From Cenococcum geophilum (Eukaryota), in contig CP158635.1 of NCBI GenBank assembly GCA_050273025.1, positions 10,912,001 to 10,976,000 of the forward strand: DNA of 64,000 bases, written 5' to 3'. Below are positions 1-59,449 of this stretch, piece by piece. A program made the position numbers and the translations under genes. A model generated the notes under the pieces. The model searched no databases. It saw nothing but the letters and a program-made list of their open reading frames with translations, and was not told the DNA's origin. Position 1 is the first letter of the stretch. Each line of letters opens with the position of its first letter.

Positions 1-720
1 ATTATATCTAATACGCTCTACTTAGTTTAAGGTTCTTATAGATAAATAGGAGGAGCTTTTAGAGCGTTTAAATAAGCTGCTAGCAGCTAAGAGTATACCC
101 TAGGTGGCTACTAAAGTCCTTAATTAGCGTATAATACAAGCCGTTAGGAAAGCCCATTGTTAGTTTTATTATATTATAGTTAGAACACTTATACTAACTT
201 AGGTTTTAGCTTTATTAAATATAGCGTCTAAGGAGGAAGTAAGCAAATCGACTAATTAACCCTAGGCATTAACTAAGTAATATAATCCTATAAGAGATAT
301 AGGCCCTACAAGACGTAAGAGTAGAGGGGCGTCGTTTAAAAAGGTTGTTTTAGTTTTCTAAGTAGTTTATATATTAACGCTAGTAGCGCCCCCACTTCTA
401 AGTCTTCTTACTTAAGGAGGCTTATTTATACCGGACTTTATTAAAGAGATTAGGCTTTTAAAGGGTTAATAGGGAGATAAGGAGCTAGATAGAAAACGTT
501 TATATTAATCTCTAATGTTAACATATACGGTTATAGCCAAGATACGCACGCAGACAATATGCCTCGTTTTGCTACTATATACCTTATAGCACCCATCTTA
601 TATACTATACAAATGATATAAACCGGCGATCAATATATAGGCTATAAGACGCGTCATAGACGAAATGGCATATACCCCACGACTTAACTCCCTCCTATTT
701 ATTAATATAAGACGTATATT

Positions 721-967
721 TAGCTCCTATGTATAACTAGAACCGAAACTAAGCCCCGGTATATAGCCCTATACTTTAAGCCTATTACTTAGCTTGGACT
801 TAAGAGGATATTAGTATAATCTAGCACTCTAGTACTTACTAGCTTAGCTATCCAAACGCCTCTATACCCGCAATGGCCCGCTAATGAATTTTTTTATAGG
901 TAATTAGCGTTTCGTTCTCGTTTTCTAGGTTATTTAACGCCCCCGATTTTAGACCTACGTATACTTT
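721..967 (+). repeat. ~250-bp dispersed repeat, copy 1 (copy 2 at 27992-28240)
   Basis: Colinear match by eye, e.g. aagcctattacttagctt..gaggatattagtataatctagcactctag in both copies. Confidence 0.85.
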
Positions 968-1647
968 CGCATAAATCTCTTCACTCTTTAACATTTTTAG
1001 TCTTTTAATTTATCTAAGTTAAGGTTAAGGATATAGTATACAGTTAATCAAAAACAGTTATACGCTTAGCTCTAAGAATACTCCTCTAGCGTTTCTAACA
1101 TCTATAAAATCGTATCCCTAGTAATATATTCCGTGTATAATATATAGAACAATTGCTAGTCTTTATATATAAGTTTTTATAGCTTTATATATTATAGCTA
1201 ATCTAGCTTTTAACGCTAAAATAGAGTAAAATTAGCAACAACTAAAAGAAGGAATTCAAAAGACAACGCGGCATTATTTACTCTTATTTTAAAGACTATA
1301 AGTTAATAACGGATAATAAAGAAGATAAGGCTTTTTAAAACCTTATTAATTACTATAACACTTATAACAATCTAGAGAAAGTTTAATATTTAAAGGAGAT
1401 ACTACTTAACCTTAATTAGGGTAAGACTTAATAAGAGATGCTTACCAAGAAAATATTATAAAAAGGATAGGAGATATTAAAATATAGAATTTAAATATAC
1501 TATAGGCCTTAAGAAGCTCCTGGATATAACTTAGTAATAGCATAGCAGTGCTTAATAGATAATCTCCCCCGTTATAGCTAAATGTATAATATAACTTTTA
1601 TTTATCCTCTAATTAACGCCTAGTATATAAATAGGATATTAATAGGT

Positions 1648-2186
1648 AAGCTAGGCGATCCTATAAGCTGGGTAATTATATAAGCTAGGTAATTATACGA
1701 GCTAGGTAATTATACAAGCTAGATACTTATAGGAGCTAGCAAATCCTACGAGCTAGGTAATTATGCAAGCTAGGTAACCATATAAGCATAGTGCTTATAG
1801 GAGCTAGGTAATCCTACAAGCTAGGTAATTATGCGAGCTAGGCAATTATGCGAACTAGGTAATCGTGCGAGCTGGGCGATTGTGCGAGCTAGATGCTTAT
1901 GGGAGCTAGCAGATCCTACAAGCTAGGTAATCGTGCGAGCTAGGCAATCGTGTGAACTGGGTAATTGTGCGAGCCGGGTAATCGTGCGAGCCGGGTGATC
2001 GTGCGAACTAGGTAATCGTGCGAGCTGGGCGATCGTGCGAGCTAGGTGATTGTGCGAACTAGGTAATTATACAAGCTAGGCAATCGTGCGAGCTAGGTAA
2101 TCGTGCGAACTAGGTAATCGTGCGAGCTAGGCAATTATGCAAGCTAGGTAATCGTGCGAGCTAGGTAATTATATAAGCAGGGTAAT
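1648..2186. repeat. 17-bp tandem minisatellite (consensus GAGCTAGGTAATCGTGC), about 30 units
   Basis: Head-to-tail units visible directly, varying mostly by C/T and G/A transitions; bracketed by a ~30-bp direct repeat (1606-1636 and 2199-2228). Confidence 0.9.
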
Positions 2187-2599
2187 CTAACTTAGCGCCC
2201 TCTATTAACGCCTAGCATATAAATAGGAAGTAAATATTAGGAAAATACTAGAACTATAAAAAAAAAGAAATATATAAGTCCTAGATCTAGAAATATTAAA
2301 GAAGTTCCTATATATGGACTTTATAACGACTTAAAGCCCCCTTATATATACTTAGAGAAGTTTATATATAAACAGCCCTATAAGCGTAGCTATAAGTCTA
2401 AGCCCCCTTACGTAACTTAACTACCCCTCCCTACTATACCGGGATAGGTAAATAACCGCTATATACTATAAGTAGAGAAATAATTTAAATAAAAAAAAAT
2501 ACTATAAAATAATATATTTATATCCTTAAGATATAAATCAATAAGTACCGTAGTCTTAAATATAACTAATAGTTACTAAGGTAGCATACGTCCTAGGTC

Positions 2600-3760
2600 T
2601 ATAAGAAATTTAAAAAATCCTAGGTTGTTAGCATAGATTTACCTTACTTATTGCTTTTAAGGTAGTAAATAAATTTATCTAAGTGAAAGTATAGATTATC
2701 GCAAATACTTTATAGCTCGCTATAAGTCAAGCGGGTAGAGACTTTAGTGGGAATAGTGAAATATTGTTTTATTTCGCGATAGGCTAAATAAAGAGAGGCT
2801 AAAGTTTTAACCCTTTTACCAGCTTTTATTAGAACTTTTCTTTATATTTTTATCCTTTACTTATAGATTTAAGACTATAAAGTCAAGGCTACTGTATTTA
2901 ACCGTCGCCTATATAGCCTTATCGCTTAACACCTCTTTATTACCATCTGCCCCTATTTCTTAATCTTTAGTACTAAAACCATTTTCTTTGCTGTATAATG
3001 TCTCTGCGTTCTATTCTTGATCCTTATTACTAAAGTTACTTTCGCAACTAGTTTACGCCTTTAGGTCGCTATTGTTATCTCTAAAGTTAGTTTCTCTATC
3101 TATAAATGCCTACTTAGTAGCTAGCAATTTAGGGATAGTATACTTATAGGTACTTAAGGGTTGCGGGATACTACTTAAGGAGTTATGGTTAATGCTGCTG
3201 GGATATAAAATATATCTGTAGACCTCTAAGTACTGGCTGCTTAGCGCCTTAAGTAAAAGATCTCCCCTAACGTAAGGCAGATTAATAGAAGTTAATTGCC
3301 GCCTATATAAGGCGGAGCGCTTATAAAGGGCTTAGCCAGAATGCCAATTAAACCATCCCGCAGGCACTAATAGCTCCTTTATTATAGATGGGGGGTTAAT
3401 ATATAAGATTAACTGGCTAGGATAAGTCTACTACTTAGGCAGTGTCTTGCCCTAGGAAGAATTGGCGTCAGAAGTAGATTATATAATACTATTTCTACTA
3501 AGAGAGGCGTTATTAGGGGTTATTATTAACTTCTAATTCTAGTTTATAACTTTATATAAACACTTCTAAACCCTACTAAGGCATACGGCGTCCGTTGGGG
3601 ATCATTAGCCTTTTAAATTCAGTAACAGCTTAGCTAATAGCTACTCCTAATAATGCCTTACTTGCGGATCACTTTAGGCACCTATAGTCTTAGGCGTAGA
3701 TAATACCTAAGCTAAGAGTAATTATAGCTACTAAATATTGTACTACAGACACTATATAAA
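2600..3760 (-). pseudogene. RIP-degraded unknown protein gene
   Basis: Minus frame reads as continuous protein if TAA/TAG are read as Gln/Trp (e.g. DPQVRHYQEQLLAKLLLNLKG); no family recognised; ends approximate. Confidence 0.3.
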
Positions 3761-3999
3761 GTGGAAAGGGGCGGCTAGTGTGCTTTACCTTTCCCTTTTA
3801 CCTTTTATCCTAACTCTGCCTTAGGAGAGAAATGGAATATAAATGTTATACTCCTAGTTCTTATATACCATTAATTTGACTTACCTTTAAATCTAACCTT
3901 TTAACTATATATCTCTTACCATCTTTATAAGAATACTAGACATTATATATGTTACCTTAACTAAGCTTAGATATATTGCTAACATAACCTATAGGTCCT

Positions 4000-5170
4000 T
4001 AATTAGTGCTTATAAAAACATCACGATATACTATTGCCTTAAAGATAACATACCTAATTATTAACCTACTGGAAACCTTAAATTATTCTAGAATCGCATT
4101 AATAATAAAGACACGGCATCTAGTAGCGGGGAGGAGAAATAATTATAGCTTTCCGACCCTATGCAGAAACAGATACCTTATACGCCTACTTAAACACCTA
4201 ATGAGGCTAATTCTTATAAAAATAACAACAATACGAAGGGCGATATACAAGAGGATATGGTTTAGGGAGGTGTATAAAAAATATACCTTAATTATCTTAG
4301 GGGATTAGAAGGCTACGGTAAAACTAAAATAGACTTACCTAAGCTAATAGAGGACTATGGCGAGGCTAAGATAGACTTGCCTTAACTAAAAGAGAACTAT
4401 GTTAAAGGCTTATTCTAGTAGATAAATACAGTTATAGGTTTTAAATATATTTCGCCGGTACCTAGAGGTATATTTATAAGACACCTATATTATTTAGCAA
4501 TACTAATAATTAAGCAGAGAATGGTTTAGTCCCTATATATCCATCTAAAGTGTTAATAATTTCCGATGCTAAGATTTTAAGCGGATAAGTAAAGTATCTT
4601 ATATCCTGGTTACCTACTTATTATATAATAAAGGATATAACACGTCTCCGAAACCCTAGTTATAGAGAAATTATATCTTTATACGGTCCTATTACAGTAA
4701 TATACTAGTATCCTACCTAGGTTTTAGCGGTGGCTATACTGTAAAAGAAACTTTTATTATACTATACTAAGAATCCTCGTCACCTTCGCCGTTATGCTAA
4801 GATATATAAACCGCTTAAAGATGTTATAATTAAGATAGCTAAGAAGGGTAAACCGTATAAGTAAGGAGATTAACTAGGACAGTAGTAGATGTCCTTTACA
4901 CCTGCTTATATAACTAAGGAGGTTAACTCTTATAAAATCGGCGATAATACGGAGGGTAATATATAAGAGGATATGGAAATATACGCCAATTATCTCAAGA
5001 GCCTGGAAGGCCGTAGCGAAACTAAGATAGTCTTACCTAAGCTAATTAAGCAAAGAGACTAACCAGGAGAGGCGCTAGATGATTATTTAGAAGATCTATT
5101 AATAAGAGGGACACGTAAAAGAAAGGTGGATTATACTATAGATAGAGCCTCCAAGAAGCTAAAGAAATGA
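4000..5170 (+). pseudogene. RIP-degraded unknown protein gene with an internal repeat
   Basis: Motif NYL(R/K)(G/S)LEGxxxTKIxLPKLI occurs at about 4290 and about 4990; RIP-type stops in frame. Confidence 0.4.
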
Positions 5171-5807
5171 GAAATTTCTTATAAGAAAAGATTTTTATAA
5201 TTACGTTCTTGTTTTCTAGCGTTAAGAATTAAGGCGCCAATTAGGATTTCTTTAGCTTAGTATTATTTTTCTATCTAGTTGCTTCTATATTAAGAGTATC
5301 TTATTATTATTTATATATACGTTAAATTAAAGTTAAGAACTCGCTTATAGTAAGCTTATAAGTCCTCTACCTTTATATACTTAGTAGCAATAAGTTAGCC
5401 ACCCTATGACTTGCTTAGTCCTCTATAAAGAATTAAAGTTAAGGTATTAAAGTCTCTAGCGTTTTTATAGGTAACTAGGGTATAGGTTAACTCTAAATTT
5501 TATATTAATAAGGTGGGAATATTAAGGATAAATACCGGATATCTCTCTTAATATTAGCCTAAGTTATAACTCTAAAAATGGGATCTTGTTCTAAGAAGTA
5601 TATCCTATTCTAATTCTAAGCCAAACGTACTAAATATGGCCAAAAAGGTATAGCGTTAAGCTAAGCGGTTTAATGGTCTTGGAAGAAAGAAGCTATTTTT
5701 AGTTATAGCTTAAGTTACAATTCTAGGAATAGAATCTGATTCTAAAACTAGGATCCTAATTTAGGTTCACGAAGCAGACCAATTAACTGCTGTAAAAAGG
5801 GCGTAAT

Positions 5808-6017
5808 TGTTACGGCTCGTACAAATGCCTCTGAACCGAAGCTTGTAGAATGCTGTATTACGAAGATACTAAGCTAAAGAGAAGGAAAAGGGGTCGCCAG
5901 GACCGATGTAAACAAATATATAGGGTGAGCCGCCAAGGCGCTAGCTTTAGGCGGGCCAATCGCAGGTTGGCAGAATATAGCAGAATTTGGCAGGTAACGT
6001 ACAATAGCGCCGTTACA
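5808..6017 (-). repeat. 3' LTR of Gypsy element 1
   Basis: TGTTAC...GTTACA ends; adjacent polypurine tract on the minus strand. Confidence 0.95.
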
Positions 6018-9000
6018 TCACCCCCCTCTTTAAAAGAAAGCCTACCCTTAGGCTTAGTTAGAAAAAATAGGGTAGTACTAGGCTTATAAACGTAGGATTA
6101 TAAAAATATAAGATAAGGAAATAAAGGGGATATGAGTCCGTCCTAACTAAGTATAAAGGGCGATTGTAGGCTAAGTGGAAGCACTAGGCTAGAAAGAGTA
6201 GCCGCTAAAAGTCTTAGTACGGATCTGACTAATTAGACAACTTTAACCGGCGGTCAAAGTTTCTAGACATCTAAAATTTTACGGTACTAGCAGAAAACGG
6301 CAGAATATGGCAGAATTTGGCGGACAGCTGTATTAGGGCTTTAGGGCGTTTTTGTCCCTATATTCTTCCGGTAACTTATTATCTTTATTATACTAGCATT
6401 TTATTTATTCGTCTAGGTACTTTAGGGGTTTAGGCGCATTAGGGTATTAGTTATAGAATTCTTTAAGCTTCTGGGGGCAGCCTATAAAGTTCTACATAGG
6501 GTACTAGGTTGGGTCAGGATCGTAGCCCTTTTATTAGATACGGTATTTTAGCGCTCCCCGTACTATCTTATAGGCCAGTATTTTGTTAACCTCCTATTTA
6601 TTATTACCGTTTACTTAAACTAGTAGGGGAGGCTTATTCTTTTATCTAGGTAATAGGTCGTTTATAGCTTTCCGTAACTTATCTAGTAAAAAAATAGGGT
6701 AAACCCTAATTAAGTCTGGGAGCTTTATCTTATACAAGTTACCTATCTTCTTAAGAACCTTATACGGTCCTACCATCTAGTAGTCCAGCTTATAGCTAGG
6801 TTGTTCAGTCCTCTAATTCCTTGTTATAACCTAGACTATATCGCTAGGGGCAAAATCGGGCTCTTAACGGTGTTTGTTCGCCTACTATTCCATTAACCTT
6901 TAAGCTTTTTCTAGGTTCTCGCGGGCTACCATCTAGGCCTCCTCTAATCGTTTAGCGTACTATTGGGCCTTAGTATAGGATAGCTTCTCTTATATAGTCT
7001 AGGGTTCTTCTAGCCTTTTCTAGTCAAAGCTTATGCGGGGTAAGTATCCTATTTCTAGCTAAATTGGGGCAAACCCTGTAGAGTCGTGGGGTAGGGTTGC
7101 TTGCGTGTAGTCTATTAAGGGTAGTAGTTTAGACTAGTTATCCTAGAAATAGTTAATAAAGGGCCTAAGCCTCTGGTCCAGGTACTAATTTATAATCTCT
7201 ATCTAACCGTCTATCTAGAGGTAATAAGCCATAGAAAGCTTTAGCTTAATGCCTAGGATCTAGGTAAACTTATTCTAGAAGGCCGATATAAACTATAGCC
7301 TATAATCGGACATAATAGTATCTGGTAGTCCGTAGATTTAGTAGACGTAATAGATATATAGCCGGGCTACCTCTTTGGTATTAATATTCTTATAACATAG
7401 AATTAAAAACGGGCGTTTACTAAAGCGGTTAACTATAACTATAACTATATCGTATCCGTTACGGTCCCTAGGTAGTTTGTAGAAGTCTATAGAGATATAC
7501 TGCTAAGGGCGCTCTAGTATTAGGAGTGGCTTAAGTAGTCCTAGGGTCTTATTCTGTGGGATTATAGCTCTCTAGCAGTCTTCGCAGTTCTGTATATATT
7601 AATTAATATCCACAACCATTCTTAGCTAGTAGTAGCGGCAGTTAATGATTTTATAGGTCTTGTTCTTACTAGGGTATGCCGTAGAGACTTGGCAATAAGC
7701 TTCGCGGATTAGTTTAGTTTATAGATTATTAACGTTAGGGACTATAAGCCGCTCCTGGTATAGGAGTAATCCTTCCTCCGTCTTAAAATTGGGGTTTTCT
7801 TTTACGGCTTGTTCGCGGAGGGCCCTTAAGGCGTTAGCCGTGCGGTTTGTAGTTAGGAGGCGGTTAATTAGCCCTATTAGTTTATTTAAGGACTCCTCTA
7901 TTAGTGCTAGCTCGTTTTGCTAGAAGTCTAGCTCCTTAAAGATTTATAGGTTAAGCTATTCTAGATAGAGGAGGGCGCGCGTCCAATATTGGGTCTTTAG
8001 CTTATCCTAGGGTCCTATATCTTATTCTCTTCGGGTTAGGGCATTAGCCTTAGAGTTTTACTTATTAGAACAATATATAATTATAAAGAAGAATTAGGAG
8101 AGTATTTTAGCCTACTAGGCTTGTCGCCTTATAAGCTGCTTTATAGTTATAAAGTACTTTAGGGCTTTATAATCTGTATATATCTTAATCTAGAAGTTTA
8201 TACCTTTAAGCTCTACGCGCTATTAAGAGAGTAATTAAATAATAGCTAGTATTTCTTTATTGTGTACTTTATAGTTATACTTAGCTAGGTTTATTGTCTT
8301 TAAGAAAAAAGCTATAGGGTACTATTTGCCGTCTAGATATAACTATAATAGGATTCCCGCTACGACCCTATTAGAGGCGTCTATTTCTAGTATTAATTTA
8401 AGGTCTAGGTTATAGTAATAAAGGATTAGGGAAGAGATAAGCCGATCCTTTACCTCTTTAAAGGCCTCCCTATAGCTATTATTAAAGACAAAAGGTGTAT
8501 CCTTCCTGGTTAGTCGTATAAGAGGTTTTACCACAATTCCGTAGTTACGGATGAACCGGCGGTAGAAATTATAAAAACTAAGGAAGGACTGGATTCCTTT
8601 TACTATATAAGGGGGCTTCTAGTTACGGATTGCCTCTACCTTCTTAGGGTTAACCTTAATTCCTTCTATAGTTACGATAAACCCGAGGTATTTTATATGT
8701 TTTACCCTAAACTCGCATTTCTTAATGTTGACTTATAAGCCCGCGTTCCGTAGTCTCTCTAGGACCTTCTTAATATAAACTTAATACTTAAGTTCGTCGT
8801 CTGAGTATATAAGAATGTTATCTAGGTATGCCGTATAGAATTTGTTAAGGTAATTAAAAAGAACGTTATTTATATACCTTTGGTACGTAGCCGGTCCGTT
8901 TATTAGTCTAAAAGGAAGAACTTTGTATTTATAGGAACTATAGTAGGTACGGAATGTTATTAAATCTTTGGATGTAGGGTTTATCCTAATTTGGTAGAAA

Positions 9001-11784
9001 GCTTAGCGGATATTAAGTTTAGTAAAGATCTTTGCCTAGCTTAGACGTGTAAGGGTCTTGTTAATTAAAGGAATAGGATACCGGTCCTTTTAAGTAATAG
9101 CGTTTAGCTTCTAATAGTCGATATAAAAACGAAGGCCTTTATTAGGCTTTTTTATGAATAGGATAGGGGAAGTAAAAGGGGCTTAACTTGGCTTAATAAA
9201 CCCTTTATCTAGGTTGTTAATTAAGTACTACTTTGTTGCTTTTAGCTTATCCGTTAATTAATGGTAGAGGGGGTTATAGCCTAGCGAGTTATTGGCCTCT
9301 AATTGAATCTTGTGATTGTACGTCCGGTGGGGGGGTAACTTATTTAAGGCCGCCTTTAAGAATGCATCCTTGTAGCCTATATAAATGGTAGGAAGGAGGC
9401 GTTTAACTAGTTCCTCGTTGGTTTCCTTATCTAGCCTTTCCTCTTTATTATTAATAATTTAGTTAATTTTATATAGGCTTATTATAAAGACCTTATTGTC
9501 CTTTTGGTATATATTAAAGTGGAACACTATAGCGCTAATTACGGCGATATTTATAATAGGGGGGTTAACTAATAATAGGGGTATATGTGACTTTAGGGAC
9601 TTCCGGGGTACTGGCGTTATTATTACTTCTTTTAGCTCCTATTGCATCTTTCGGAGGTTATCCCTTATATCCTATTAATACGTTCTTTTCTATAACGGTT
9701 AGATCTGTGCGATTTAGACGTTATCTATATTATTATCTGTCCCGCTTTTATATGTAGAGTTCTCTCTAAATATAGCGCTTTGGGAGAGTATCTTTATTAG
9801 TACGGAGTTCTTTCCAGCTTCGCGGCGGGCGTCCTCTTAGGTAAAGGCTAGGTTATGGGCCTAGATATCCTACTAGTAGGTAGGGTTAGCCCTTGCGGCT
9901 AGTGTCTTGTGGTTAGTTCGGATCTCCTTAATAAAGGAGGGTAACCTTAGTTTATCCTCCGGCTAGACAAACCGTCTTTTTTGCATGTTTAGCCAAATAT
10001 TAAAATAGGATATCTATTTTTGTTTAAGGATTATGTTATAGGACCCTAGGTCTAGGATGTAAAAGGGGATACTATATTGGCGTCGTCCGTTAAGAGCGAT
10101 ATATAACTTTAAGACGTGGGTAACGGGCTAACCGGCTTGGCCGTTATAGCCCTTTACCTAGATAGGCTTCTTTAGTTGGATGGCTTCTATATTTAGAAAC
10201 TTGGCAATATTATTTATATAGGCAGTATTTATAAAGGCAAAGCTATTTACTCTAGTATTAATAAGGGCGGTTATATTAACTCTATATCCATTTTGAGATA
10301 CTATATATAAAACTGTAAAATGCTTTCTACCTATTAACTAACTGAGATTAATCTCTTTGAGATCGATAGGGTACCCTAGGGGGGAGTCTTTCCCTAGGGT
10401 TCTTCTTTTTTTAACTTATTAGACGTTTCTCCTTCCTCTATCTCCTTAATATCGCCTATATCCTTTAGCTCCGGGCAGGATGAGGTAAAGTGACCTTACT
10501 TATTATAGTTAAAGTATATAGCCGAGGTAGGGTTGATCGGAGTATTATAGCGAATACTAGTTAATGGCGTGGTATATAGCTAGTTAGGTAAGGCTTGCTA
10601 GGGCGTAGTTGTAACCGCCTTTAGTATAAGAGTAGTTATAACTTATCTTCTTGCTCTAGCTTCTATAGGTGTAGCTGGCAAGTTCTAATTGTTATGGAGT
10701 TGCTTCTGCTAATTAGGGCGGGCGTTAATCCGCTTTAGTTCTAAGTCTAATAATAGGTAATAAGCTATAAGTCTTTCGTAGGTTAGTAGGTTATTTAAGG
10801 TTATAGTAATCTTTTCTTATAGCCGGATTATTAGCTTATTATATAGGTCTAATTGGTAGTTCTTAAGGGGAACCTAGCCTTCTCCTGTAAGGTATAGGAA
10901 TTAAGTCTAGAATTTGGCAAAGGGTTAGTTTAATTTTATTATTAGGTGATTATAGTTATAATGGGCATCCTGTACTTTGTTTGGGTTAATATAAATAGCC
11001 GCTAGGTGCTATATTATTTTATTAATAGATATAAATCGGATAGGGGAGTCGTCCTTAAACTTGGCTTAAAGGTGCCGTTAGGCGTCCCCAGTGGTTTAAC
11101 TAAAGAGGTAGAGTATTTTGGCTTCTTTAGAAAGGAAATGGTTATAGTTAATACGGAGCTTTCCTTATACTTAAATCCTCTAATTCTTAAAGGTAGGGTC
11201 TATCCCGTTAGATAGTGGTGGGGGGTTAGGGAGCTTAACGGACTTTAATTACTTCGTTATTATATCTGTACTCCCTAGTATATTATATTTAGTAGAGTAA
11301 ATAGGTCGGCTAGGGCTTTAAGAAGGGGAAGCTGGGCTATTTTATAGGGCCGTAAGGCTTTCTAGGATCTCTTATAGGGTCTCTTGTATATTTCTTGCTT
11401 TAAGACAATCGGCTTCCTGGCTGGCTGTAAGGGCGCGAATCTGCTCGCGTATGTCTATAATATTATTATTGTCTTTGATTTCTAATCCCAATTAGATCTT
11501 AGGTTCCTCTTAGGTAGAGGCAGCTCTCTTAAATAAGCTTGCTTTAGGTGCCATTGTTAGCTTCCTAAGGTTCGTCGGTATTATACGCTTTAGTTTTAAT
11601 TCTGGGGGTATAGGTCTAGTCCTATTTAGCTTATAAGGTAGGATATTATCTAGGCCTTCCCAGGTAATATAGAGTTATTTTGGTGTCTAAGTATAGCGCG
11701 TTAATACGTCGTTGTAGACAAAGTTTCTTTGGGGTGGGATATTATTAAGGCCTTCTCAGGCAAGGTAGGGAGAGCTTAGTATAA

Positions 11785-11994
11785 TGTTACGGCTTGTATA
11801 AATGCCTCTAAACCGAAGCTTGTAGAATGCTATATTACAAAAATACTAAGCTAAAAAGAAGGAAAAGGGGTCGCTAGGACCGATGTAAATAAATATATAG
11901 GGTAAGCCGCCAAGGCGCTAGCTTTAGGCGGGCTAATTATAGGTCGGCAGAATATGGTAGAATTTAGCAGGTAACGTGCGATAGCGCCGTTATA
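11785..11994 (-). repeat. 5' LTR of Gypsy element 1
   Basis: Colinear with 5808-6017; the differences seen are transitions; terminal CA changed to TA. Confidence 0.95.
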
Positions 11995-12599
11995 GTAATC
12001 CTAAAAAAGGATCTAGTTCTAAGAACCAGATCCTAGTTACGGGAAATAAGTTAATTAAGCGCTATAAAATAGGGTTGGCTATATCTATATTTGGCATATT
12101 AGGTTTAGCTTATTTTAGGATTAGCTATATAATTGATTGTAGGTACTTATATAACTAACCTAATAATTAACCCGCTATTGCCAGCTATACCTTACCTAGC
12201 GCCTTTTAGCATTACTACATTAAAGCCTTACTCTATTTAAGCCTTACGCGTTATAGAACAAACTAAAAGCTAATAACTACGATTACTAATAAATGCTACC
12301 TATAACTTTCCACTTTAGGTTATTATGGCTTAGTATTTAACTAAGCCCCACAAAGCCTTAGTCTAAGCCACGTTAGATTAGCTTAACTTTTCCACGCCTA
12401 ACCTTTAAATCCTCCTTACGTTCCGCTCGCACCTTACTTTCTTTCCTCCCTCGCTATTCCCTTATTTTAAGACGCGCCTAATATATATTCAACCTCCCTG
12501 CACTTATTTACTTCTCTACTATTATACCGTCCTTATATACTGGCCTCTTAATCTCCTCTTACCTGCCTATTCGCCTACTACGTCGGCCCTCCTAATATA

Positions 12600-15040: not shown

Positions 15041-15249
15041 ATAGAATAATATTTTATTGCTCTTTTACTACACAAGTGAAGTTTTACAAAGATTTGGGCG
15101 GCTAAGGCCAGGTAGTAGCCTTAGTTAAAACGTATATAAAATAGCATAGGGCAAGTCGCCAGGGCTAAATAAACCTAGGAAAGTGGATAACCTAATCTTC
15201 CGCCAGATTATCAGGTCCCTATACCCTACCATCCTATATAGGCTTTATG

Positions 15250-22899: not shown

Positions 22900-23720
22900 T
22901 AAAGCATTATATATACTAGAGGCTTTAGATTATAGCTATGCCCCACTAAACCTACCCCACGCGGCTTAAAATTTTAAGTAGTAAAACAACAACAACTTTA
23001 AACCAACGGCAGAACGACTAAGTAACAAGTATATAGATATTAAAGTCGTTAAACGTAGTAGGCAAGGGCTCTTTATAAAAGAAGATCTTGGTAAGGCTTT
23101 ATAAGCTTTTATAAAAGACGGGTTTCTTATTCTTAAAAGAGCTATAAGCATTAAGCCCCCTTTAGCGGAGTTATTAGAGTTATTAAGCTTTATTAAAAGG
23201 GAGATTGTCTTAAATAAGGTAAGCTATTTCTGAAGTTTGTAAGCGAGACTAATATCCCTCTAGGCTATTAAAATAATACTTTTCTTAGCTTAAGATAATG
23301 GCTTTTATATTGCCGCCTGCCTTCTATTTAAACCTACTCTAACCCGCGAAGAGTTAAGGCGCGATTATAAATAGAAAAAAATGGCTTCTGTTAAAGATCT
23401 TATAGGGGCTATATACTATTATTTAGGAGGAGATTAAAATGTTATATAGATATTCCAGGTTAATATATATTCTTGTAAAGTAGCTACTAAGAAAATAGTA
23501 GATATTAAGGCTAATAGAGGTAATATATATATACTCTTAAACCCTATAAATATTTTCGCATTTACTAAACTTCCTCTAGCTTTATTTGCTATTACTAGCT
23601 ATTATAGTTAAGACCTTTCCTTAAGAATAAACTACCTTCCCTAGTGTACGCGATTATGGTTTTATATATATAGACCGGGTATCCTAGGCGCGGAGTGCTA
23701 GATAATCGAACTAGTAATAA
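22900..23720 (+). pseudogene. RIP-degraded unknown gene
   Basis: Protein-like frame (AFIKDGFLILKRAISIK) and intron-like GTAAGC..CTAAT..TAG at about 23219-23262. Confidence 0.3.
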
Positions 23721-23749
23721 GATTCTAGAGCAGTTTGGAAATAATTGCT

Positions 23750-25400
23750 TTAGAAGTAGTAAATATATAGTTTAAAAGCGGTAACTATATTAAGTAGCAC
23801 GTAAAAGGAATAAAGATCACCGCTTATAGCTAGCTATAGATTCTCCTATATATCCCTCTACCGAAGTATTAAATATTACTTTAAGCCTAGACGAGAACTA
23901 ATAGCGTATAATTAAAAGTAGATTTAGTTTAAAAGGAGGGCAATTAAGCGAGCTTAGGAGGCGGTTTTATAAGTCACGCTAATACGCTTTAGTCAGTGCT
24001 AGGCTATAGCGGGGATTTTAAAAGGCTTACGCCAGGCCTATAATATTTAAGTCTAGATTAAAGAGTAATATATTCGTTATACTAGGACCCTCTAGGGAGA
24101 ATAACTACTATATTGACTTTAATAGAAGGTTAAAGGGTGTCGCGTTAAACGTATTCTAATAAAATAACCATACTTCTGCCGGAGAATTAGAGGGTGCCGC
24201 ATTTAACGGGTTTAAATCGTCCTAGGAGGATAGCGGCTGCATTAGTTCTAGCAAATTATTAAAGGGCGTGGCATTAAACGTATTCCAGTAAAATAACTGC
24301 ACTTGCCCTATTATATTTAAAGTGTTCCAGTTATCCTATAGGGGCGGCTACTATATTAGCTCTTATAGATCGTCAAATGGAGTAGCATTAAACGTGTTCC
24401 AATGAAATAACCGTACTTACTCCGCTAAAGAATTAGTGGCTACCGTACTTAACGAGCTCGAATTGCCCTAGGAGAATAGCGGCTGCATCGGCTCCAGTAA
24501 ATTATTAAAGGGCGTAGCATTAAATGTGTCCTAATTGCGATTAAAGGGCGTAGCATCAAATGTATTCTAATTAGGCGGTTGCACTAGTTCCGCTAGAGAA
24601 CTTAAGGGTGCTATACTTAACGTGCGCCCAAACAGCTCTCTATATAGCTACGATGCTAATTACTTAAACTCTACTTAAGAACTAGAGGGCGTTACCTTAA
24701 ATTTATAAATATTTATATGCCAGGTAAAACTTAATAGTTTTTAGAATTCTTATTTGTATATATAGCAGTATTTATCCAGTTAACTCTTTCCTTTATAGAA
24801 CTTCCTTATATGTTTCTAGACATTATATAACTTGCTAAAACAGCAAATGCAGAATAGATAAGGAAATTTCTTTAAAGGCTCTTTCTTCTTTTTAAGAGAT
24901 AATATACAATTTATAGCTTATATATTATTCTCAGTCCGATAATACTTAGCATTCCGCTTACTTTAGTAAGGTTTAAAGATTGCAGAGTGACCGCGTTTTC
25001 GCATTAGAGGTATTATAACGTATAGGGTTGTACTAAATTCCTAAGTTTTAGTAGATAGAGATTAGATAGGTTCTATTACTTATAATTCCTACACCTCTAA
25101 ATACGTGTTCTGCTTAGTATAGAAGAGATATCTATAGTTCCTACTATATAGGGGACCGAAGGCTTTAAACTATCCCTACTATAGTTAATAACAAATACTC
25201 GTTATTTGCGCAGGAGGCTGCTAGGTACTATAGGGGAATTAGCGCAGATCTCTAAGGTCGCGGACTTTATTAAGCTTCGTTACTAAGTAAAGAGGCTGCC
25301 CATAATTAGGAGGAATTGTAATACTAAAGGAGTCGTTATACGGATACTAAGGAAGGTAAAACTAGGGCTTATTGTCGGCGAAACTATAGAATAGGGAAAG
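23750..25400 (-). pseudogene. RIP-degraded gene with zinc-finger-like segment and repeated (D/N)ATPF(D/N) motifs
   Basis: Minus strand has repeated aatgctacgccctttaat-like units (24100-24710) and a KFPxLFCxxCFSKLQCLETx segment about 24810-24870. Confidence 0.45.
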
Positions 25401-26399
25401 ATTAGGAAGAATAAGAGAGATATAATAAGTAAGAATCCGGGTAATGCGCGTTATGTTAGTATGTTATATACAGGCTGTAGGGGCTAAGCTTATTAAATAG
25501 AGAATTACGAGCCGCTAGGGCGAGAGTATTAGAAATAAAAAGCGTGCCAAGCAAGCCTATACCTTAGTAAAAGAGGTACTTAGAGACATTAAGGCCTAAA
25601 AAGGCGTATATAAAAGAAGGCGGCATTATAGATACGGCTGTTAAAACTGATCTTAAGACCCTAGCCACTCTCGCTACCTTTTTTTAGCTTAAGGAGGCTG
25701 GTTTCCTAAGGCGCTGCTAAAGTTATAGAGGAGTCCTATATAAGTTATATAGAAGTCCCAGAGGAGTTATAGAGGAGTTATAGAGGAGTCCTAGAAGATT
25801 CCTAGAGGATTGCTAAGAGATTGCCATTAAGGGGTACAATATTCTATAAAGGTAGTTAGAGGGAATTAGGCTATAACCTAGCCTTACAGCCGCCCTATTA
25901 CCCTACTACCCTATTACGCTATTGCCTTATCGCCTTATTACCTTCTTACCCTTTTTTACTTTAGTTAACCTCTTTATTAGCAGAACACCTCTACTTTTTA
26001 AAACAATGTATAAACTTCCTGTTGTAGCATTTATTAGCGCTAAGTTTATTTATTTACTTATTCTTAGTTAAGTAGTGCTTTTATAGCTTCGTTTACTAAC
26101 CACCTCACGGCATTCTCTCCGCTTTTAAATAATTTTTTACTTCCTCCCTCTCCAAACTACTTTTAGAGTCTCCCTTTATTACTAGCTTAAAAACATCTCT
26201 CCTATTTTAGCCAAGTTATTATACGTATTATTGGAGCTGTCCTAGTGTACTAGACTAGCTATTAAGGTTTATACGTGCAGCCTTTTAAAGTAAATTACTA
26301 ACTAAAAATTAGGCTTTATTTTTGTGGAGATTCTATATAAATATTCCAAAAACTATTTTTAATAAGGATTTCCCAGTCGTTACCAGCATTACTATACTT

Positions 26400-27770
26400 G
26401 CCTTTCTACTCCTAATTTCCGGCTTCGTACTAATATTCTTCTCACGACACTAAATAACAGGGCGTTTATTAGCTTTCTTAGGTGGTCTCTTAGTAAATAT
26501 ATTATTAGGTATAACTTTTACTACTTCTACCTAGATAGTGAGAAAATATAAAAGGTTAAAAGTATTATAGCTCTTATGCGCTACAATTATTCTTATACTA
26601 TATTCTAGCATTTACTTTATATTTATTAATACACATCTATTCCTTTTAGTAAGCTACTATAGTAACGCTCTAGTGACCTTCACTAATACGAATAGGGACA
26701 CTTTCTTATGGAATGTGTTACAAACATTGCCGTCATTTTGCTACAAGCTTAGTCGCTTTATATTAAATACTAATAGCATAACGCGACATCTTACGACATA
26801 CCTATTAGCCCTAGTGACTCGGAGAAAGCTATACGGAGATATTCGAACCCTAAGTACCCCGACCGACCTATTAGCCCCAATGACTTAGAGGAAGCCACGA
26901 TATTAAATCCTAAATCCTCCTATACTAAAACTGATCATAGAAGAAATAGGTTAGTTCTTAGTTATCTTAGTTACTTCTTAGGCTAATACCAGCTTAGTAG
27001 TTTTAAAATTTACGTTAGCTATTCCATTAGTATAACCTATAAAGCGCGAAGAGAAGGCAAGACCTTTCTATTTAAGAATTTCAAAGCTATAGATAATCCC
27101 CTACTAGATAAGGGCCTTTAATCTAAGGTATATGGCCTATAGTAGGATTATATCTTTCCACCTAAGAAGGTCAAAGCCATGGATGACTTCCTACTGGATA
27201 AGGTTTTCCTCGGAGATGATCGCCATATACTTTAGTTATGCCTTAAACATATATGTCTTAAGCAAGAGTGGGAAGACTTTATATCTTAGATACTAGAGCT
27301 TAGCGACTTAAAGAGGGAGGCTATAGAAAAGCTAAGGCTGTAAGAGGTACATATAAGGAACTATTAAGTTATTTAGGAGGAATTTTCTTCCTAGGTAGCA
27401 GCTATACATAGACTTTATTAAAGCTTAAAGCCTCTTACTGCTTTTAAACTTCCTTAGAAAACTCGGCTAAGGTGCGGCTCCTCCTTTAAAGGCATGTAGT
27501 ATTATCTAAAATTGCCTTATATGGCTAAGGTTAAGATGCACTCTATTAAAGCTACTAAACGCGTCTTTAGCTCTATGCCTCATCACATAAAACCAGACTG
27601 TGGTTTTTATTTATTTTTAGGAGGGAAGGCCTTATATAGAGTCTCTTATTATTGCATAAAACTTTTATACTAGAAGTATACCAAATTTTTAAGGGCTAGG
27701 AGTGGGGGATACGCTAGCGCTCTACGACTTGGCTAATTACTCCTAGTTATGCAACAAAGCCTTAATAAGT
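26400..27770 (+). pseudogene. RIP-degraded unknown gene(s)
   Basis: Protein-like frame with RIP stops (KVKAMDDFLLDKVFLGDDRHILLVMP...); ends uncertain. Confidence 0.3.
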
Positions 27771-27991
27771 GACGGTCTAAATATCTATAGGTTTCATTAT
27801 AGATAGGTAACTAGGGTAATTAGGGGAATATGCACCTAAGCACGAGCTAGAGTATAGCGCATTTACTTTACCCCTCTTAAATAGTTAGACTTTTATATTT
27901 TAAAGTCTAAGCCGCGATCTATAGGGTAAACTACTAATCTAAAAAAGCCCTAAACACTACTTACTCTCTTACTCGTTAATCTAAAACGTGC

Positions 27992-28240
27992 TAGCTCCTA
28001 TGTATTAACTAGCACTAAAACTAAGCCCCTATATATAGCCCTATACCTTAAGCCTATTACTTAGCTTAGAGTTAGGAGGATATTAGTATAATCTAGCACT
28101 CTAGGGCTTGCCAGCTCAGCTACTAAAACGCCTCTATATCTATAGTGGCCCACTAATGGATTTTTTTTACAGGTAATTAGTATTCCGTTCTTGCTTTCTA
28201 GGTTAATTAGCGCCTCCGATTTTGGGCCTATATATACTTT
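27992..28240 (+). repeat. ~250-bp dispersed repeat, copy 2 (copy 1 at 721-967)
   Basis: Direct colinear similarity to 721-967. Confidence 0.85.
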
Positions 28241-28299
28241 TACTGCTTCTAAACAATTAGGGTTAAACTATATTACAGTTAGCCCTCTACTAACCTTTA

Positions 28300-29250
28300 C
28301 TACGTATAACTATATATCCGCATTAAGTTACTAACGCTGCCTTTTAATGTATTTAGCGTACCGGGTTCGGACCTATATATACCCTCGTTATTCTAGTAAG
28401 ATATTGGCTATATATAGCATACTCAACCTTTAACCGGTCTTTGATATACATATAGCATAGTATATACTATTGTTTTATCGGCTAATGCATTAATAAACCA
28501 CTAAGTCCAGACCTCTAGAGCCGACATTCTTGTTACTTACCATATTATATCTTCCTAGGGAGGTTCCCAATCCTAAGGATACTCTTATAGCTACTTTTAC
28601 AACTCTTAAAGCCGCCCCCATAGCGGTGAGATTTCAAGTCCTTGCCGCTAACTTTGACAAAAGCGTTCGTATAACCAATAGCAATTACTCTATACTTGTT
28701 TATATTGCAATGCCTCTTAATAACCGCACTATGTTAAGTTTAGAGATCCTTCGTAATACGATTTACGAAGAAGGTGTTAAGTACGCAGTTAGTGCGTATA
28801 ATATTTCCGGTAAAGCCTATAAGAAGCTTCCTAATAGACTTACGGTTCTACGCTACTGTTTAAGTATATATCCTTTAATAATATAATTTTCTGGACTAAT
28901 TGCAATGTAGAGCAAGAGGCGAAATTTAAAAGAGAAGCCTTTAAATAAGCACTTAAGGAATATATGGCAGAGCAACAGAATAAAGGATAGATTATATAGA
29001 TAGCTAAAAAGCTTAGGCTATAGGGGTAGGTAAGCCAACTCACTCGCTACCAAATTAAGGGTGCTATATATTAGAGGCTATAGAAATACTACTATCTAAT
29101 TATATGAAGGAATGTTTTATAGGTGCACGGGAATAATTAGAAAATTTTATATAAACTATTAAGGAATATAGAGTCCTATAAAACATTTTCGTCGTTATAT
29201 TTTTAAGACAAAGTTTAGAATAAATAAGACTTAGTATAGCTTAGACGGAG
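28300..29250 (+). pseudogene. RIP-degraded unknown gene
   Basis: Residual 118-aa open frame 28530-28886 that continues through RIP-type stops. Confidence 0.35.
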
Positions 29251-29388
29251 GACCTAGGGTTAGTATATCTGCTATAAAGACTAATCTCGTCCAAGAATAG
29301 CGTCTAAAATCTAGGGTAAATAATAGATTAGTTAGCCAGACACCGGGATTTTGCCACCCCTTTAAAGCCCTTTACTACTTCAACACTT

Positions 29389-30130
29389 ATAGACCTTATC
29401 GTAGTACCACCCCCTAGCTGCAGCTGTAAGAATCTTATCGGCTAGGGAATTTTAGGCACTGTGTATTATAATAAACTTTAAAACAAGGTTATTAAAGCTC
29501 CAAATAACGCGAATTCTTAACACTTTATTAAAGTTAAAAAGGAGATCTATAAGAGACTTGGTTAATATAATGGACTCTTATAATACTATAGCAGCGAACT
29601 TTTCTAAAAGGATAACCGTACGGTAATACGTCTAGAACGCGCTCTAAACGGCCAGCTTTATGGGTTTCTTTAGGACAGAAGCAATAATATCAATCAAATT
29701 TTATAAATATGTTAGATTTTATAGCTTACAGATATTCTTAAATATATTCACTCTAGATATGTTATATATAGTGATATTTCATACTATAACATTCTCTTAG
29801 ATAAACATTTAAACGCAAAGCTAATCGACTTCGCTAGTTTATTAATTAATAGGTCTCCTCTTCTTATTTTATACTCTATTTAAGCCCAAGCTTTATATCT
29901 AAGCACGCCTTAGAAGGACAAAATTTTTGCCTTTAGATCGGCTTGTTATTATATCTTAATGCGTTATATTGCCTTTTATAAGCTTTCTAACGATAATATA
30001 GAAGATCGTTATAAATAAGGAATATTTCCCGAATTAAAGTCCCTAGGGGCCTTTAGAGTCATTATTAGAGGCTGTTAGAACGGCAAATATAACTATATAA
30101 ATAACATTATTAAAGAAATGGATAAGTAAG
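29389..30130 (+). pseudogene. Atypical Ser/Thr protein-kinase-like gene, RIP-degraded
   Basis: Gly loop LIG(W)GIxGTVY, VIKAP, EIYKRLG, NILLDKHLNAKLIDFAS, IIRGC(W)NG; ATG changed to ATA at 29389. Confidence 0.8.
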
Positions 30131-30949
30131 GTATATTTATAAAACTAGGAATTTTAACTATCTAAACTTATTCGCAGGTTTACGGAATCTATCCCTAGTA
30201 ACGACGCCGCGGCATTTCCTCCACACTCTTAAGGCTTTCCTTTTAACGTTTATAAAATCTCGTCTTTAGCTTAAAAATCTAAAGGCTTCTCTGTTTAGAT
30301 TTATACTTTACCTATTTCTTAGGCGTTATTAGCGTTAACAAAGGTAAGTTTTGTGCTTTATAAGTCTATTAGTCTTACTATCCTTATATACAGTGTAATA
30401 TACTAACCATCCTTTATTTAGGACATATTAGACAATCTCTAGTTACTAGCAAGCTCCTAAACTGCGCCGTATTTTATATTACGGGTGTTAGGTTAGGATA
30501 CGCTTACCCACCTTATATAATGGCACTAGGGTAGGGGACGATGCGATTTATCTTTAAGGAATATCTTAGTCTCTTCTAGCACTTTTTATATTAGACGGTA
30601 ATCTTAGTAGATTAGCATATCTTAAGTATAGAGAAGTTTATAATTTAACGAATTCTTAAGTATATTAATGGTAAAAGAGAGGATTTATAATATAAATAAA
30701 TAGGTACTATAATACCTAGTAATATAACAAGTCTTACAACTTATAAGGCTCCGTTTTGATTAAATATACATAACATAGATAAGTTAGCAGCGAAATTTAG
30801 ATGAAAACGGCTGTATATAGCAATACCGCCTTAAGAAAATGCACTTAAACAATTGGACTACTAAATGCAAACCCCGGCTTCCTATTTCTATAGGACTAAC
30901 CAAAATATAAGAATACGCCCAAGCTACTAGCCCCGTCTCTTCTATACGG

Positions 30950-32150
30950 CAACCCTGCCCTTTACTTTTGCAACTTTAGAAAAAGAGTGCACCTATAACA
31001 ATCTAGCTTTAGCTTACTAAATGCGTCTTTAGTAAGACTTAAGGACATCGTTAGAATTTAAAAGCCCGCTCTTATAAACCTAGGTAGGCTTCCAAGCCAC
31101 CTTATATTTGCGCCCTAACTTAATTATTTTTTCCCCTAAAATATCATTAATCTCCCATTCATCATCCAAGCTTACTTTGTTAATTTTGTCTTTTTTAGTC
31201 TAGGTACAACGCTTCACAGCAGGCTCTAGGTTTAAAACGTCGCTCCAGTTATTAGCGACGCCGCCGCTATTACCGTCCTTGTCCTCATTATAAGTACGAT
31301 TACTAGCCTTATTATACGGCGGTTTAATGCTATAAAAAAGGGTAGGCTCCTAAAGTAAAGGGCTAGCAGGACGCGGAGTGGATACCGCTTACTAGTTAAC
31401 TTGCGGGTATTAAGAGTTAAGGTTAGGGATAGGGGGGCTAGAAGATAAGTCTTTGCGATAGGCGGGTGGCCTTTATTACTTCTAGGGACGTAGACTATTA
31501 CCACCCTTACTACCCCTACTACTCTCTTTAGTAGGGTTATTAGAATTATAATTAGTAATATTATCCTACTTAAGCTTCCGCTTCCTTAGTATAAAGGATA
31601 ATTCGCCTTCTATATTCCCTTTCTTATAATTACCTTCCTCCCTAATAAGCGGATTGTCTATATTATGGTTATTAGGTTATAGTAACAATATTTTTAATAT
31701 CTATAACCTACCAATATTATCTATATTATTGGCTATTAAGGAGTCTTAGTTAGTTACTATATAGGTCTCTAACTTTTATATAGCCTAGGGGACAGTCGCA
31801 ATATTAATTCCCTTAGCTAGGCTATCTATTTCATTAACGTCTTCTGCTATAGGTTTGAGATAGTTATATATAGATACGCTAAAGAGATCTTCCAGCTCCT
31901 CTAAAGAAGGTAACTCCTTATCCTTATTGTCTTTATTGCCGCGGTTATTTCTACTATCTAATAATTGTTAAGTAAGGCCGTTATATAGGGGGGAAGTATA
32001 TACCTAACCTATAAGGTGCTAGTTAATCGCCGACTTTATTAGCTTTATTGCCAGTATTACTAGCTCTATCCCCTTTAGCTTCAGGTTCCAAGTCTAGGTC
32101 GGCTATATTATCTTTAATAAATATTGGATTCGCTGCTAACCGTTAGACAT
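30950..32150 (-). pseudogene. Low-complexity protein with C-terminal chromodomain-like module, RIP-degraded
   Basis: ATG at 32150; C-terminal DDEWEINDILGEK..GRKYKVAWKPT(W)VYKSGLLN at about 31040-31165 fits the chromo-fold aromatic pattern; no integrase upstream. Confidence 0.6.
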
Positions 32151-32799
32151 ATTTATAGTTATTAAAAAAAGAAGGAGGGGATAATTACTAAATTACCTTA
32201 ATTACTTCCTCTAGCGTCTTGGCTGTTACTTATATTCTTATAAATATCTTTATACTTATTAAAAGCCTTAGGATCTGCGGGTGCCTTATTAGGTAGAATA
32301 TTTAAAAAAGGTAATATAAAATAACTTGCCTAAGTGTAACTAGGCCAAATATTTTATAGGATTATCTCTTAAAGGGAAGCGAGGTACTCTCCCCTTTTTT
32401 GTCCTCTTTTTAAGTATGTTACTTATATTTGCCTTAAAAGCCGTAATTATATAATACTAAGAAGCCTTCGGTTTTTTAGGGGGTGTAGTATAAAAATTAA
32501 TATTATTAAGTAAAATTTATAAATTAAAATAAAGGGGTTAAGAAGATGCCACCGTTACTACCGCTATTATTATTAGAATTATTATTGCCTTATGCCTTTC
32601 CAATAGCCCTAAAGAACGGGTTACGCTAGGCTTTTAAGTCTATGCTAGTCCCCTCTTTACCACTAGCTTATATCCGCAGCATCTATATTAAAATAACCCT
32701 ACTAACTTAATAGCGAATTAAAACGTGTAATCTACACTCTATTAGTAATTACTATTTATAATATATAAAGGTATATACGGGCTTAAACTCTATTATAAG

Positions 32800-33900
32800 A
32801 TTAACACCTATTAGGAAACTGCAATTAAGACCCAACTAATTAACCTAGCACATTCAGCCTCTAACAGGGGCATCGCACCAAGCCTCCTTATTAAGGAGGT
32901 TGGTAGCAAAATGCCTCTGCCCTTATTCCTTAGAGTTAGAGCTAGTGCTAACATATCTGTTTTCTAACCCGATTTTTCTAACCCAATTATACTAGTAAAC
33001 TAGATCTTCTATACTAGATCCTCTGCGAGACTATAGTTCCTAGGGTTAGATAGGTAGGGGGCGTGCTATAATTCTGCTGTAAGTATTAAAAGACACTCTG
33101 AGTAATAAGGGTATCCTTAAATCTCTCCCCTAGATCCGAGGAACTTCTTTAGTTATACTCTACCCTTACCTATAGCCGGATGTCACAAACAACATAAGGG
33201 GGCAGATAGCGTAAGTAGATCAGGCGATTATACCTATATCCATCTCACTACGCCCTTTTAGCTAATGCAGCTACCGTATAAAGTCCGTCTCTATTAGGAG
33301 GTTAAATACGCGAATTTTTCTCTAGTATTTATCAGCTAAGAGTAAGATTATAACACCAGCTTCACTAAAAGCCAGGCTATGCTACTAAATAGGCCGTTTA
33401 CCCTTAGATTCTACCTTATAAGTCTTAGGTCTATATAAAGGATATTTCTATATAACCTATACCTCCTTAACTAAATAGGGGGCTGGATTAGACTAAAGCC
33501 CGGCGGCTTCTCTAATTATAATATAATCCTCTAATTGTTAGGGAAGGGTAAGGTTTAGGTCTAGGTTAAGAAGGCGCTAAGGAGGGTAAGGGCTTCTAGC
33601 TTTTAGCGGCGCAGCTTTAACTAAGCTAAGTGACTAGTATTAGCCTATAGTTTCGCTAAGGACCCACTTCGGCGTCCGGCTTTGCCTTTATTATAATGCT
33701 GCAATGCGACACTACCTAACGCGTCCCGCAGCTCGCAGTAGCTATAACCCGTATAATCTATTGCTAGGCGGTTCTCGGCATGGCTATTTATAGCTATTCC
33801 GATAAGGATTAAGTTGTATATTATAGTTACGTCCGAGACACTACTAGAGGTAAAGGTAAAGAAGAGGATAAACGGAAATGTTATTCCGGTACACTAATTA
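32800..33900 (-). pseudogene. RIP-degraded unknown gene
   Basis: GC-richer protein-like stretch with a CT-rich promoter-like region upstream (33900-34250 on the minus strand). Confidence 0.25.
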
Positions 33901-44234: not shown

Positions 44235-44236
44235 TA

Positions 44237-59372: not shown

Positions 59373-59449
59373 TAAAATCGAAAATGTCTGATTACTTCAG
59401 CAAGCTCAGATAGAATCAATTAGCGGACATACGTATATCCGCAAGCAGG

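Follow-up and report, generated by a model that had tools for sequence, protein, structure and literature searches.

A RIP-mutated block of dead kinase and chromodomain-like genes in Cenococcum geophilum: probably one copy of a large composite repeat

This report concerns a 64,000-nucleotide stretch of the genome of the root-symbiotic Dothideomycete Cenococcum geophilum (contig CP158635.1, positions 10,912,001 to 10,976,000; hereafter the window), and in particular its first 33,900 positions, a block in which relics of a FunK1 kinase gene, a second protein kinase gene and a chromodomain-like gene lie, together with a nested Ty3/Gypsy retrotransposon, in DNA altered by repeat-induced point mutation (RIP). 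We consider it probable that the block represents a single dead copy of a large composite repeat belonging to this species, amplified in large pieces and subsequently killed by RIP. The window is AT-rich from its start to about 44.7 kb (GC 0.30-0.40), passes into a gene island of normal GC content between about 44.7 and 58.9 kb (0.44-0.50), and is AT-rich again from 60 to 64 kb. Each 2-kb bin from 1 to 44 kb has a TA/AT ratio of 1.45-1.96 and a (CA+TG)/(AC+GT) ratio of 0.38-0.66, as against 0.68-0.99 and 1.15-1.42 through most of the island; no stop-free frame of at least 150 amino acids occurs left of 47 kb, and the 12 that exist all fall within 47.2-58.9 kb. RIP-like values in all of these bins, and a composite RIP index roughly equal in the non-Gypsy parts of the block (0.85-1.25) and in the nested Gypsy (1.13-1.54), agree with the original prediction made from this sequence, in which the block was as RIP-mutated as true transposons. 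A RIPped region of 44 kb is ordinary in C. geophilum, since the 178.5-Mb genome of C. geophilum 1.58 is reported to consist to 78% of transposable elements (TEs), of which 94% are RIP-affected (PMC12910237). The features of the block and its right flank are collected in Table 1.

Table 1. Features of the block and its immediate right flank (window coordinates; strand given where a feature has one)
Feature	Coordinates	Strand	Basis and remarks
Left part of the composite repeat	1-5807		Segment A (200-1639), minisatellite (1647-2172) and segment M (1851-5543); RIP indices, Tandem Repeats Finder (TRF), match to metagenome copy L002
Nested Ty3/Gypsy long terminal repeat (LTR) retrotransposon	5808-11994	-	LTRs, GTAAT duplication, pol domains; inserted into the composite repeat
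Piece Y, 264 bp, beside the FunK1 unit	12036-12299		Inverted in L002
FunK1 unit	12299-15910	+	Dead FunK1 gene, then 17-bp minisatellite from 15325-15574 onward; highest summed depth of 12001-32000
Segment B, about 13.4 kb	15911-29300		Nearly flat depth; no coding capacity detected
3.5-kb sub-element inside segment B	22322-25832		Inverted ends of about 110 bp holding 11-bp repeat arrays
Dead second protein kinase gene	28960-30270	+	N-terminal region and kinase domain; Pkinase match
Dead acidic orphan gene with chromodomain-like C-terminus	30951-32423	-	Homology to intact proteins; convergent to the second kinase
Right end of the block	32424-33900		No Pfam match; abuts the truncated Ty3 element
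Truncated Ty3 reverse transcriptase (RT)/RNase H	about 34585-35644	-	Pfam; directly right of the block

The gene content of the block was assessed with a Pfam scan of 24 six-frame translations over 1-5900 and 11901-33900, in which X was written at each stop. Outside the Gypsy, two of the 24 translations gave matches, both to kinases; the sensitivity of the scan was adequate, because Ty3 RT in equally RIPped DNA still scored 1e-15 to 1e-26. The stronger match is to FunK1 (PF17667; E = 7e-85, 285.5 bits against a cut-off of 24.1) and spans positions 17-386 of the 387 in the profile, at about 13508-14732 on the plus strand. Its relic can be read in a single frame from about 12700 to 14950, and the gene is dead, since 26 stops interrupt the 570 codons read; it has 715 homologues, the best at 62% identity, and an intact relative (K441DRAFT_249103) is annotated in C. 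geophilum 1.58. The second kinase, read as a 437-residue piece, matches Pkinase at 2.8e-8, its 33.9 bits exceeding the cut-off of 31.7. The third relic has no Pfam match, Chromo (PF00385) being absent at E ≤5, but is 60-61% identical to two intact proteins, P0284 (E = 2.5e-114) and P0285 (E = 1.1e-94), the latter annotated in C. geophilum 1.58, where the intact gene is K441DRAFT_180999. Both of these align to the full length of the Chromo profile, with 19.4 and 21.0 bits where the cut-off is 25.1, and on this likeness the orphan gene is best described as chromodomain-like only. Alignment of the relic to its intact relatives requires three frames, which we read as frameshifts, and nowhere in the block is three-base periodicity stronger than in its region (chi-square 23-35). 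Per-frame stop density and period-3 chi-square have too little power for counting RIPped genes, FunK1 itself scoring 6-16. Scanning metagenomes with the intact chromodomain-like protein brought up no relative, although RIPped copies would not match its peptide patterns.

Three gene relics are therefore supported outside the Gypsy, where the original prediction had seen about 15 genes at a density of one per 2 kb, some of them with introns. The two kinases it named are both present, and its chromodomain protein stands as a homologue of two proteins with a sub-threshold Chromo match, though the relic itself lacks a Pfam match; the introns are unsupported, the three frames of this relic reading as frameshifts, and the "repeat proteins" are minisatellites, since the 17-bp unit that TRF finds in both tracts is incompatible with a codon repeat. 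The two tracts are different arrays of the same period, one at the edge of the left segment and the other at the tail of the FunK1 unit. Further orphan genes for which there is no profile are possible in the block. The left part (1-5807) gave a Pfam match in none of its six frames, and six-frame scans of segment B likewise gave none. An exhaustive HMMER search with 26301-29900 in one frame (one of the 18 frame-segments of segment B) against 1.84 billion representatives returned only 10 proteins, of 47-200 amino acids; five were traced, all of them unnamed open reading frames (ORFs) on contigs of 0.9-6 kb, and we take the 10 short matches to be ORFs called on further copies of the repeat itself.

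Evidence for such copies comes from the contigs of four sequencing runs (X1, X5, X10 and X22), aligned at a likeness of at least 80 to window positions 12001-32000, the interval to which all copy-number data refer. A 10-kb piece of the block is near-identical in four runs from a single sample, which contain 0.56-0.62 of its words, and partly present in another 16, of which 14 carry a second organism label and two are root metagenomes; four other runs of that second label contain next to none of its words. The aligned contigs number 15,900 in X1, 12,918 in X5 and 18,822 in X10, with all 30 bins covered in each of these three, and 698 in X22. Those of X1 comprise 2,249 at a likeness of 99 or more, 3,837 at 95-99, 6,458 at 90-95 and 3,356 under 90 (9,814 below 95%). 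The run X22, which holds next to none of the words of the stretch, serves as a control for chance alignment of AT-rich DNA: its summed depth over the 13-kb part is about that of one contig, at 82-86% likeness, and its bins at 21.3-23.3 kb are nearly without cover, a gap that contigs cannot turn into proof of absence. The stretch from 12 to 32 kb thus exists as very many diverged copies in several strains. Among the variant sites in X1, transitions number 982 (C>T), 830 (G>A), 737 (A>G) and 660 (T>C), whereas every class of transversion is represented only 2-32 times, and the distinct X1 contigs with the alternative letter at the listed sites number 3-20 in 16-29 kb and 18-48 in 13-15 kb. Differences between copies are almost exclusively C-to-T and G-to-A changes, running in either direction; this, along with high TA/AT and low (CA+TG)/(AC+GT), characterizes the block as a RIP-affected repeat.

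Summed depth along this interval falls into three tiers. In X1 it amounts to 15,000-33,000 over the FunK1 part (12.0-16.0 kb) and, across 16.0-29.3 kb, to 2,918-4,574 in 19 of the 20 bins, the first bin standing at 5,454; from 29.3 to 32 kb it is 7,000-9,400. The middle tier is equally flat in X5 (154-269) and X10 (547-1,260). Single listed contigs have depths of 54-112 in X1, 5-7 in X5 and 12-25 in X10, and the 13-kb part comes to about 30-60 contig-equivalents of summed depth in three of the four runs, which is a rough measure and not a copy number. At 12312-12314 loose contig ends with poorly agreeing flanks occur in all four runs. Two other candidate joints were rejected: one from 22203 to 29476, with only 29 letters on its shorter side, is too weak and would cut the kinase reading frame, being at best a deletion variant, and one from 29531 to 15954 rests on one contig and is too weakly supported.

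Independent copies were found in metagenome contigs (L001 and L002) by way of an unchanged 28-base stretch of the 13-kb part. L002, comprising 20,028 bp of a 74,886-bp contig and itself RIPped, reproduces, at 80-91% identity, about 96% of window 200-26721 once the Gypsy is left aside. A single colinear alignment (89.4%) extends over window 15911-26721 and continues straight into the FunK1 unit (12298-15730, 80.5%), and the intervals 12036-12299, 1851-5046, 5038-5543 and 200-1639 are matched at 87-91% each. At least about 20 kb of the block therefore recurs together in a second, independent copy. Over the 10,813 columns of segment B, L002 departs from the window by 1,025 transitions and 40 transversions; the transitions run about equally in both directions, which fits two copies RIPped independently from one ancestor. 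Over the 1.2 kb covered by L001, the three sequences are mutually 88-89% alike, with 3-6 transversions between them, and so represent at least three distinct copies. The L002 alignment breaks at window 12298/12299, and also at or inside the two 17-bp minisatellite arrays. The 3.5-kb sub-element of segment B is found in both the window and L002 (where its ends lie at 895-994 and 4261-4360), and no target-site duplication was seen around it.

The nested Gypsy, on the other hand, has no match in L002: the element landed in the copy in the window, and the second copy is without it. Its two 208-bp LTRs, at 5808-6015 and 11785-11992, are 90% identical in a self-comparison, and the 5-bp target duplication GTAAT is present at both flanks. 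A single minus-strand frame encodes the pol domains RVT_1 (9e-26), RT_RNaseH_2, RT_RNaseH, Integrase_H2C2, SH3_Tf2-1 and a weak rve; two LTRs, a 5-bp duplication and the order RT, RNase H, integrase identify a Ty3/Gypsy element, as predicted. The truncated Gypsy said to adjoin the right end of the block is likewise present, in the form of the Ty3 RT/RNase H remnant. Farther right, a tandem duplication of about 1.4 kb (38669-41535, 83% identity) contains a Ty3 capsid-like relic at about 38931-39408 on the minus strand.

Overall, the many diverged contigs in three of the four runs and the independent metagenome copy establish that the block, as had been proposed, is multicopy, and they support its being part of a many-copy, diverged repeat rather than unique DNA hit by leaking RIP. 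On this view, what killed the genes was the repetition of the DNA that carried them, and leakage of RIP out of adjacent transposons was not the cause. The composite repeat itself would be made up of sub-repeats of unequal abundance, of which the most abundant would be a 3.6-kb unit of FunK1 gene and minisatellite; a unit of 3-4.5 kb holding the convergent pair of protein kinase and chromodomain-like gene would be intermediate, and the 13-kb stretch without recognisable coding sequence would, with the left part, be the least abundant. We propose that this composite multiplied in large pieces during a lineage-specific burst, and that RIP then mutated each copy independently, killing the carried genes. 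The machinery of amplification appears not to be encoded in the visible sequence. The mechanism we prefer is dispersal of a large DNA segment, non-autonomous or of cargo type, combined with independent spread of the FunK1 and the kinase/chromodomain sub-units.

Several findings weigh against this account. Depth is non-uniform, that of the FunK1 part being about five times, and that of 29.3-32 kb about twice, the depth of the 13-kb part, and because it falls into three tiers the block is not simply one unit. L002 has two segments flipped in place and is without window 5544-5807 and 11995-12035; segment M is inverted in it relative to segment A, and piece Y (L002 14109-14372, 88.6%) has the opposite orientation to its neighbours. 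The coding part of FunK1 (window 12700-14937, L002 11496-13697) differs by 78 transversions in 2,244 columns (3.5%), about 10 times the figure for the adjoining 13-kb segment. This higher divergence, together with the breaks at 12298/12299 and 12312-12314, argues that the history of the FunK1 unit differs from that of its neighbours, and suggests either that the many FunK1 copies have undergone gene conversion with one another or that the unit arose separately. L002 may, moreover, represent the same locus in another lineage, an orthologue and not a paralogue, or may be a chimeric metagenome assembly. The Logan contigs are short, and colinearity within the source genome is visible in no single record. 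Finally, no ends, target-site duplications or transposase were found for the block. The earlier idea of amplification as one unit is consequently retained in part: large parts do recur in the same neighbourhood in L002, but the three depth tiers, the break at about 12299-12314 and the two flipped segments speak for a more complex history.

Taken further, such irregularities could mean that unrelated families of unclassified repeats and expanded gene families are simply nested here as a mosaic, that no amplification occurred at the level of a unit, and that L002 is the same locus in another lineage. The depth tiers and the heterogeneous flanks at 12312-12314 are what this would predict, as are the 3.5-kb element with inverted ends and the Gypsy, both nested. 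The transversion divergence from L002, 0.3-0.8% outside the FunK1 unit, is compatible with orthology, and the genome is reported to consist to 78% of TEs, with 17.76% unclassified (PMC12910237). However, unrelated families would hardly give a depth nearly flat over 13.3 kb in all three high-copy runs; L002 shows rearrangement and is missing both 305 bp and the Gypsy; and the equal distances among L001, L002 and the window, at 88-89%, are like those of paralogues RIPped independently. We regard a mosaic as unlikely on balance.

The search for termini bears on the ways in which the composite repeat might have moved. An LTR and terminal inverted repeat (TIR) search at 12.3-12.6, 15.9-16.3, 22.1-22.3 and 29.2-29.6 kb, with transitions scored leniently, yielded nothing above shuffled sequence except one marginal direct match (52.5 against a shuffle maximum of 42), and no LTR pair around 12-34 kb was revealed by self-BLAST or by a purine/pyrimidine word search. 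The sole direct repeat of the block, of 290 bp and 81% identity, has its two copies 27 kb apart (678-967 and 27955-28240) and occurs also at L002 19239-19504. It shows no depth spike and is not high-copy; as a pair of terminal repeats it was rejected, contigs being colinear across 28240, where they bridge it with depth unchanged. The many kilobases of repeated DNA without coding capacity recall large non-autonomous LTR derivatives (LARDs), but neither the 13-kb segment nor the block lies between paired LTRs.

The lack of a transposase and of termini might also point to spread by repeated segmental duplication or ectopic recombination within the AT-rich compartment, without transposition. Local inversions do separate the window copy from L002, and the weak joint between 22203 and 29476 suggests deletion variants. 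Tens of dispersed copies are, however, many for this process, and self-comparison revealed no second copy of the block within the 64-kb window, so that the copies do not form a local tandem array. The 698 contigs of X22, as against 12,918-18,822 elsewhere, hint instead at a lineage-specific burst, although contigs cannot prove absence. We give duplication of this kind little credence.

The original prediction named a Starship-like or undescribed giant element, and a decayed Starship, or a similar giant transposon of the tyrosine-recombinase type, would account for several features of the block: it would have carried the kinases and the chromodomain-like gene as cargo, with a captain situated to the left of the window. 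Starships are discrete insertions between target-site duplications, often with TIRs, and have empty sites in other individuals. As in Starships, a large, multicopy DNA unit with host-type genes is found in a Pezizomycotina genome, its parts recur in the same neighbourhood, its left end is beyond the window, and degraded Starships without a captain have been described (PMC9156397). The conserved accessory genes of Starships are given in that source as DUF3723, ferric reductase, patatin-like protein and NOD-like receptor (NLR) genes, at least three matches denoting a "degraded Starship". In the block, by contrast, neither this set nor any captain, TIR or target-site duplication was seen. None of the 45 six-frame translations over 1-44.8 kb contains DUF3435, DUF3723, ferric reductase, patatin, NACHT, HET or SesA, with PF12520, PF01794, PF01734, PF05729, PF06985 and PF17107 all absent at E ≤0.01, in DNA where equally RIPped Ty3 RT remains detectable. 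The absence of the captain profile (DUF3435, PF11917) concerns these 45 translations; the repeat continues past the left edge of the window, where L002 contributes nothing new, so a captain farther left is possible. Starship copy numbers, tabulated in PMC9156397 for four elements, are 0-5 per genome, as opposed to tens here by our rough depth measure, and neither the three depth tiers nor the absence of TIRs or direct repeats at the breaks is readily accommodated. Membership of the block among Starships is thus unsupported, and we judge it distinctly unlikely. No paper joining Starship and FunK1 was found. Of the papers that name both Starship and Cenococcum, PMC12910237 has Starship once, in its reference list, and the others, judged by title and the opening of the abstract, do not concern Cenococcum.

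A bolder proposal is that the composite repeat, at least 27 kb long and present in tens of copies, is a high-copy giant mobile element of a new kind, outside the known transposase families, in which the kinase and chromodomain-like genes, and perhaps FunK1, are the element's own genes and not cargo. The chromodomain could then steer insertion into heterochromatin, and the 13-kb part might hide machinery too RIPped or too novel for current profiles. We hold this to be a long shot, and continue to favour a composite repeat dispersed in large pieces.

Such a repeat has partial counterparts in known systems. It resembles the large RIP-affected regions of C. geophilum and other Pezizomycotina in being an AT-rich stretch of tens of kilobases with similar RIP indices, Ty3 and unclassified repeats and an adjoining gene island of normal GC content (PMC12910237). 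No description of a composite repeat with kinase and chromodomain-like relics was seen in that study, which attributes the expansion of the symbiotic C. geophilum genome mostly to retrotransposons; the family may be listed there among the "unknown" TEs. The FunK1 family is reported to be expanded and non-syntenic in some fungi (PMC3203195), and the block shares with the expansions in Paracoccidioides, Coccidioides and Coprinopsis a member of PF17667, here at the highest summed depth; it differs from them in that the copies are RIP-killed and belong to a repeat that has a defined break on its left and a minisatellite at its tail. Among articles on FunK1 and TEs, no link between FunK1 and a repeat appears in titles or the opening parts of abstracts.

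The remainder of the window provides the genomic setting. The GC-normal island between the two RIPped regions contains an intact gene for nucleolar complex protein 3 (Noc3; 56745-58889, minus strand), whose upstream end is about 1.1 kb from the second RIPped region. The protein is 99% identical to one cluster of 16 sequences, and its closest named relatives are Lepidopterella (74%) and a Mytilinidion/Lophium cluster (73%). Both edges of the island carry palindromic repeats of about 430 bp (43809-44654 and 58944-59375), 77-84% alike and matching in both orientations, which might represent a foldback-type repeat or mark a boundary element. The second RIPped region contains 370-bp direct repeats of 95% identity (60305-60674 and 62892-63261), 2.6 kb apart, which have from their sequence the appearance of a young LTR pair around a short interior.

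From the viewpoint of genome evolution, the block is a well-supported example of a known phenomenon, namely a composite repeat that is multicopy and degraded by RIP, in a fungal genome rich in TEs. It raises the question of the mechanism by which a block of at least 20 kb reached tens of copies, as nothing seen identifies the mover. On the ordinary reading, it illustrates how RIP destroys whole sets of host-type genes once these come to lie on repeated DNA. If the composite moved as a unit, it would constitute a giant, gene-carrying element in a symbiotic fungus, with a copy number far above those of known Starships. In either case, the inclusion of FunK1 kinase genes in a highly amplified repeat may help to explain the patchy, lineage-specific expansions of this family.

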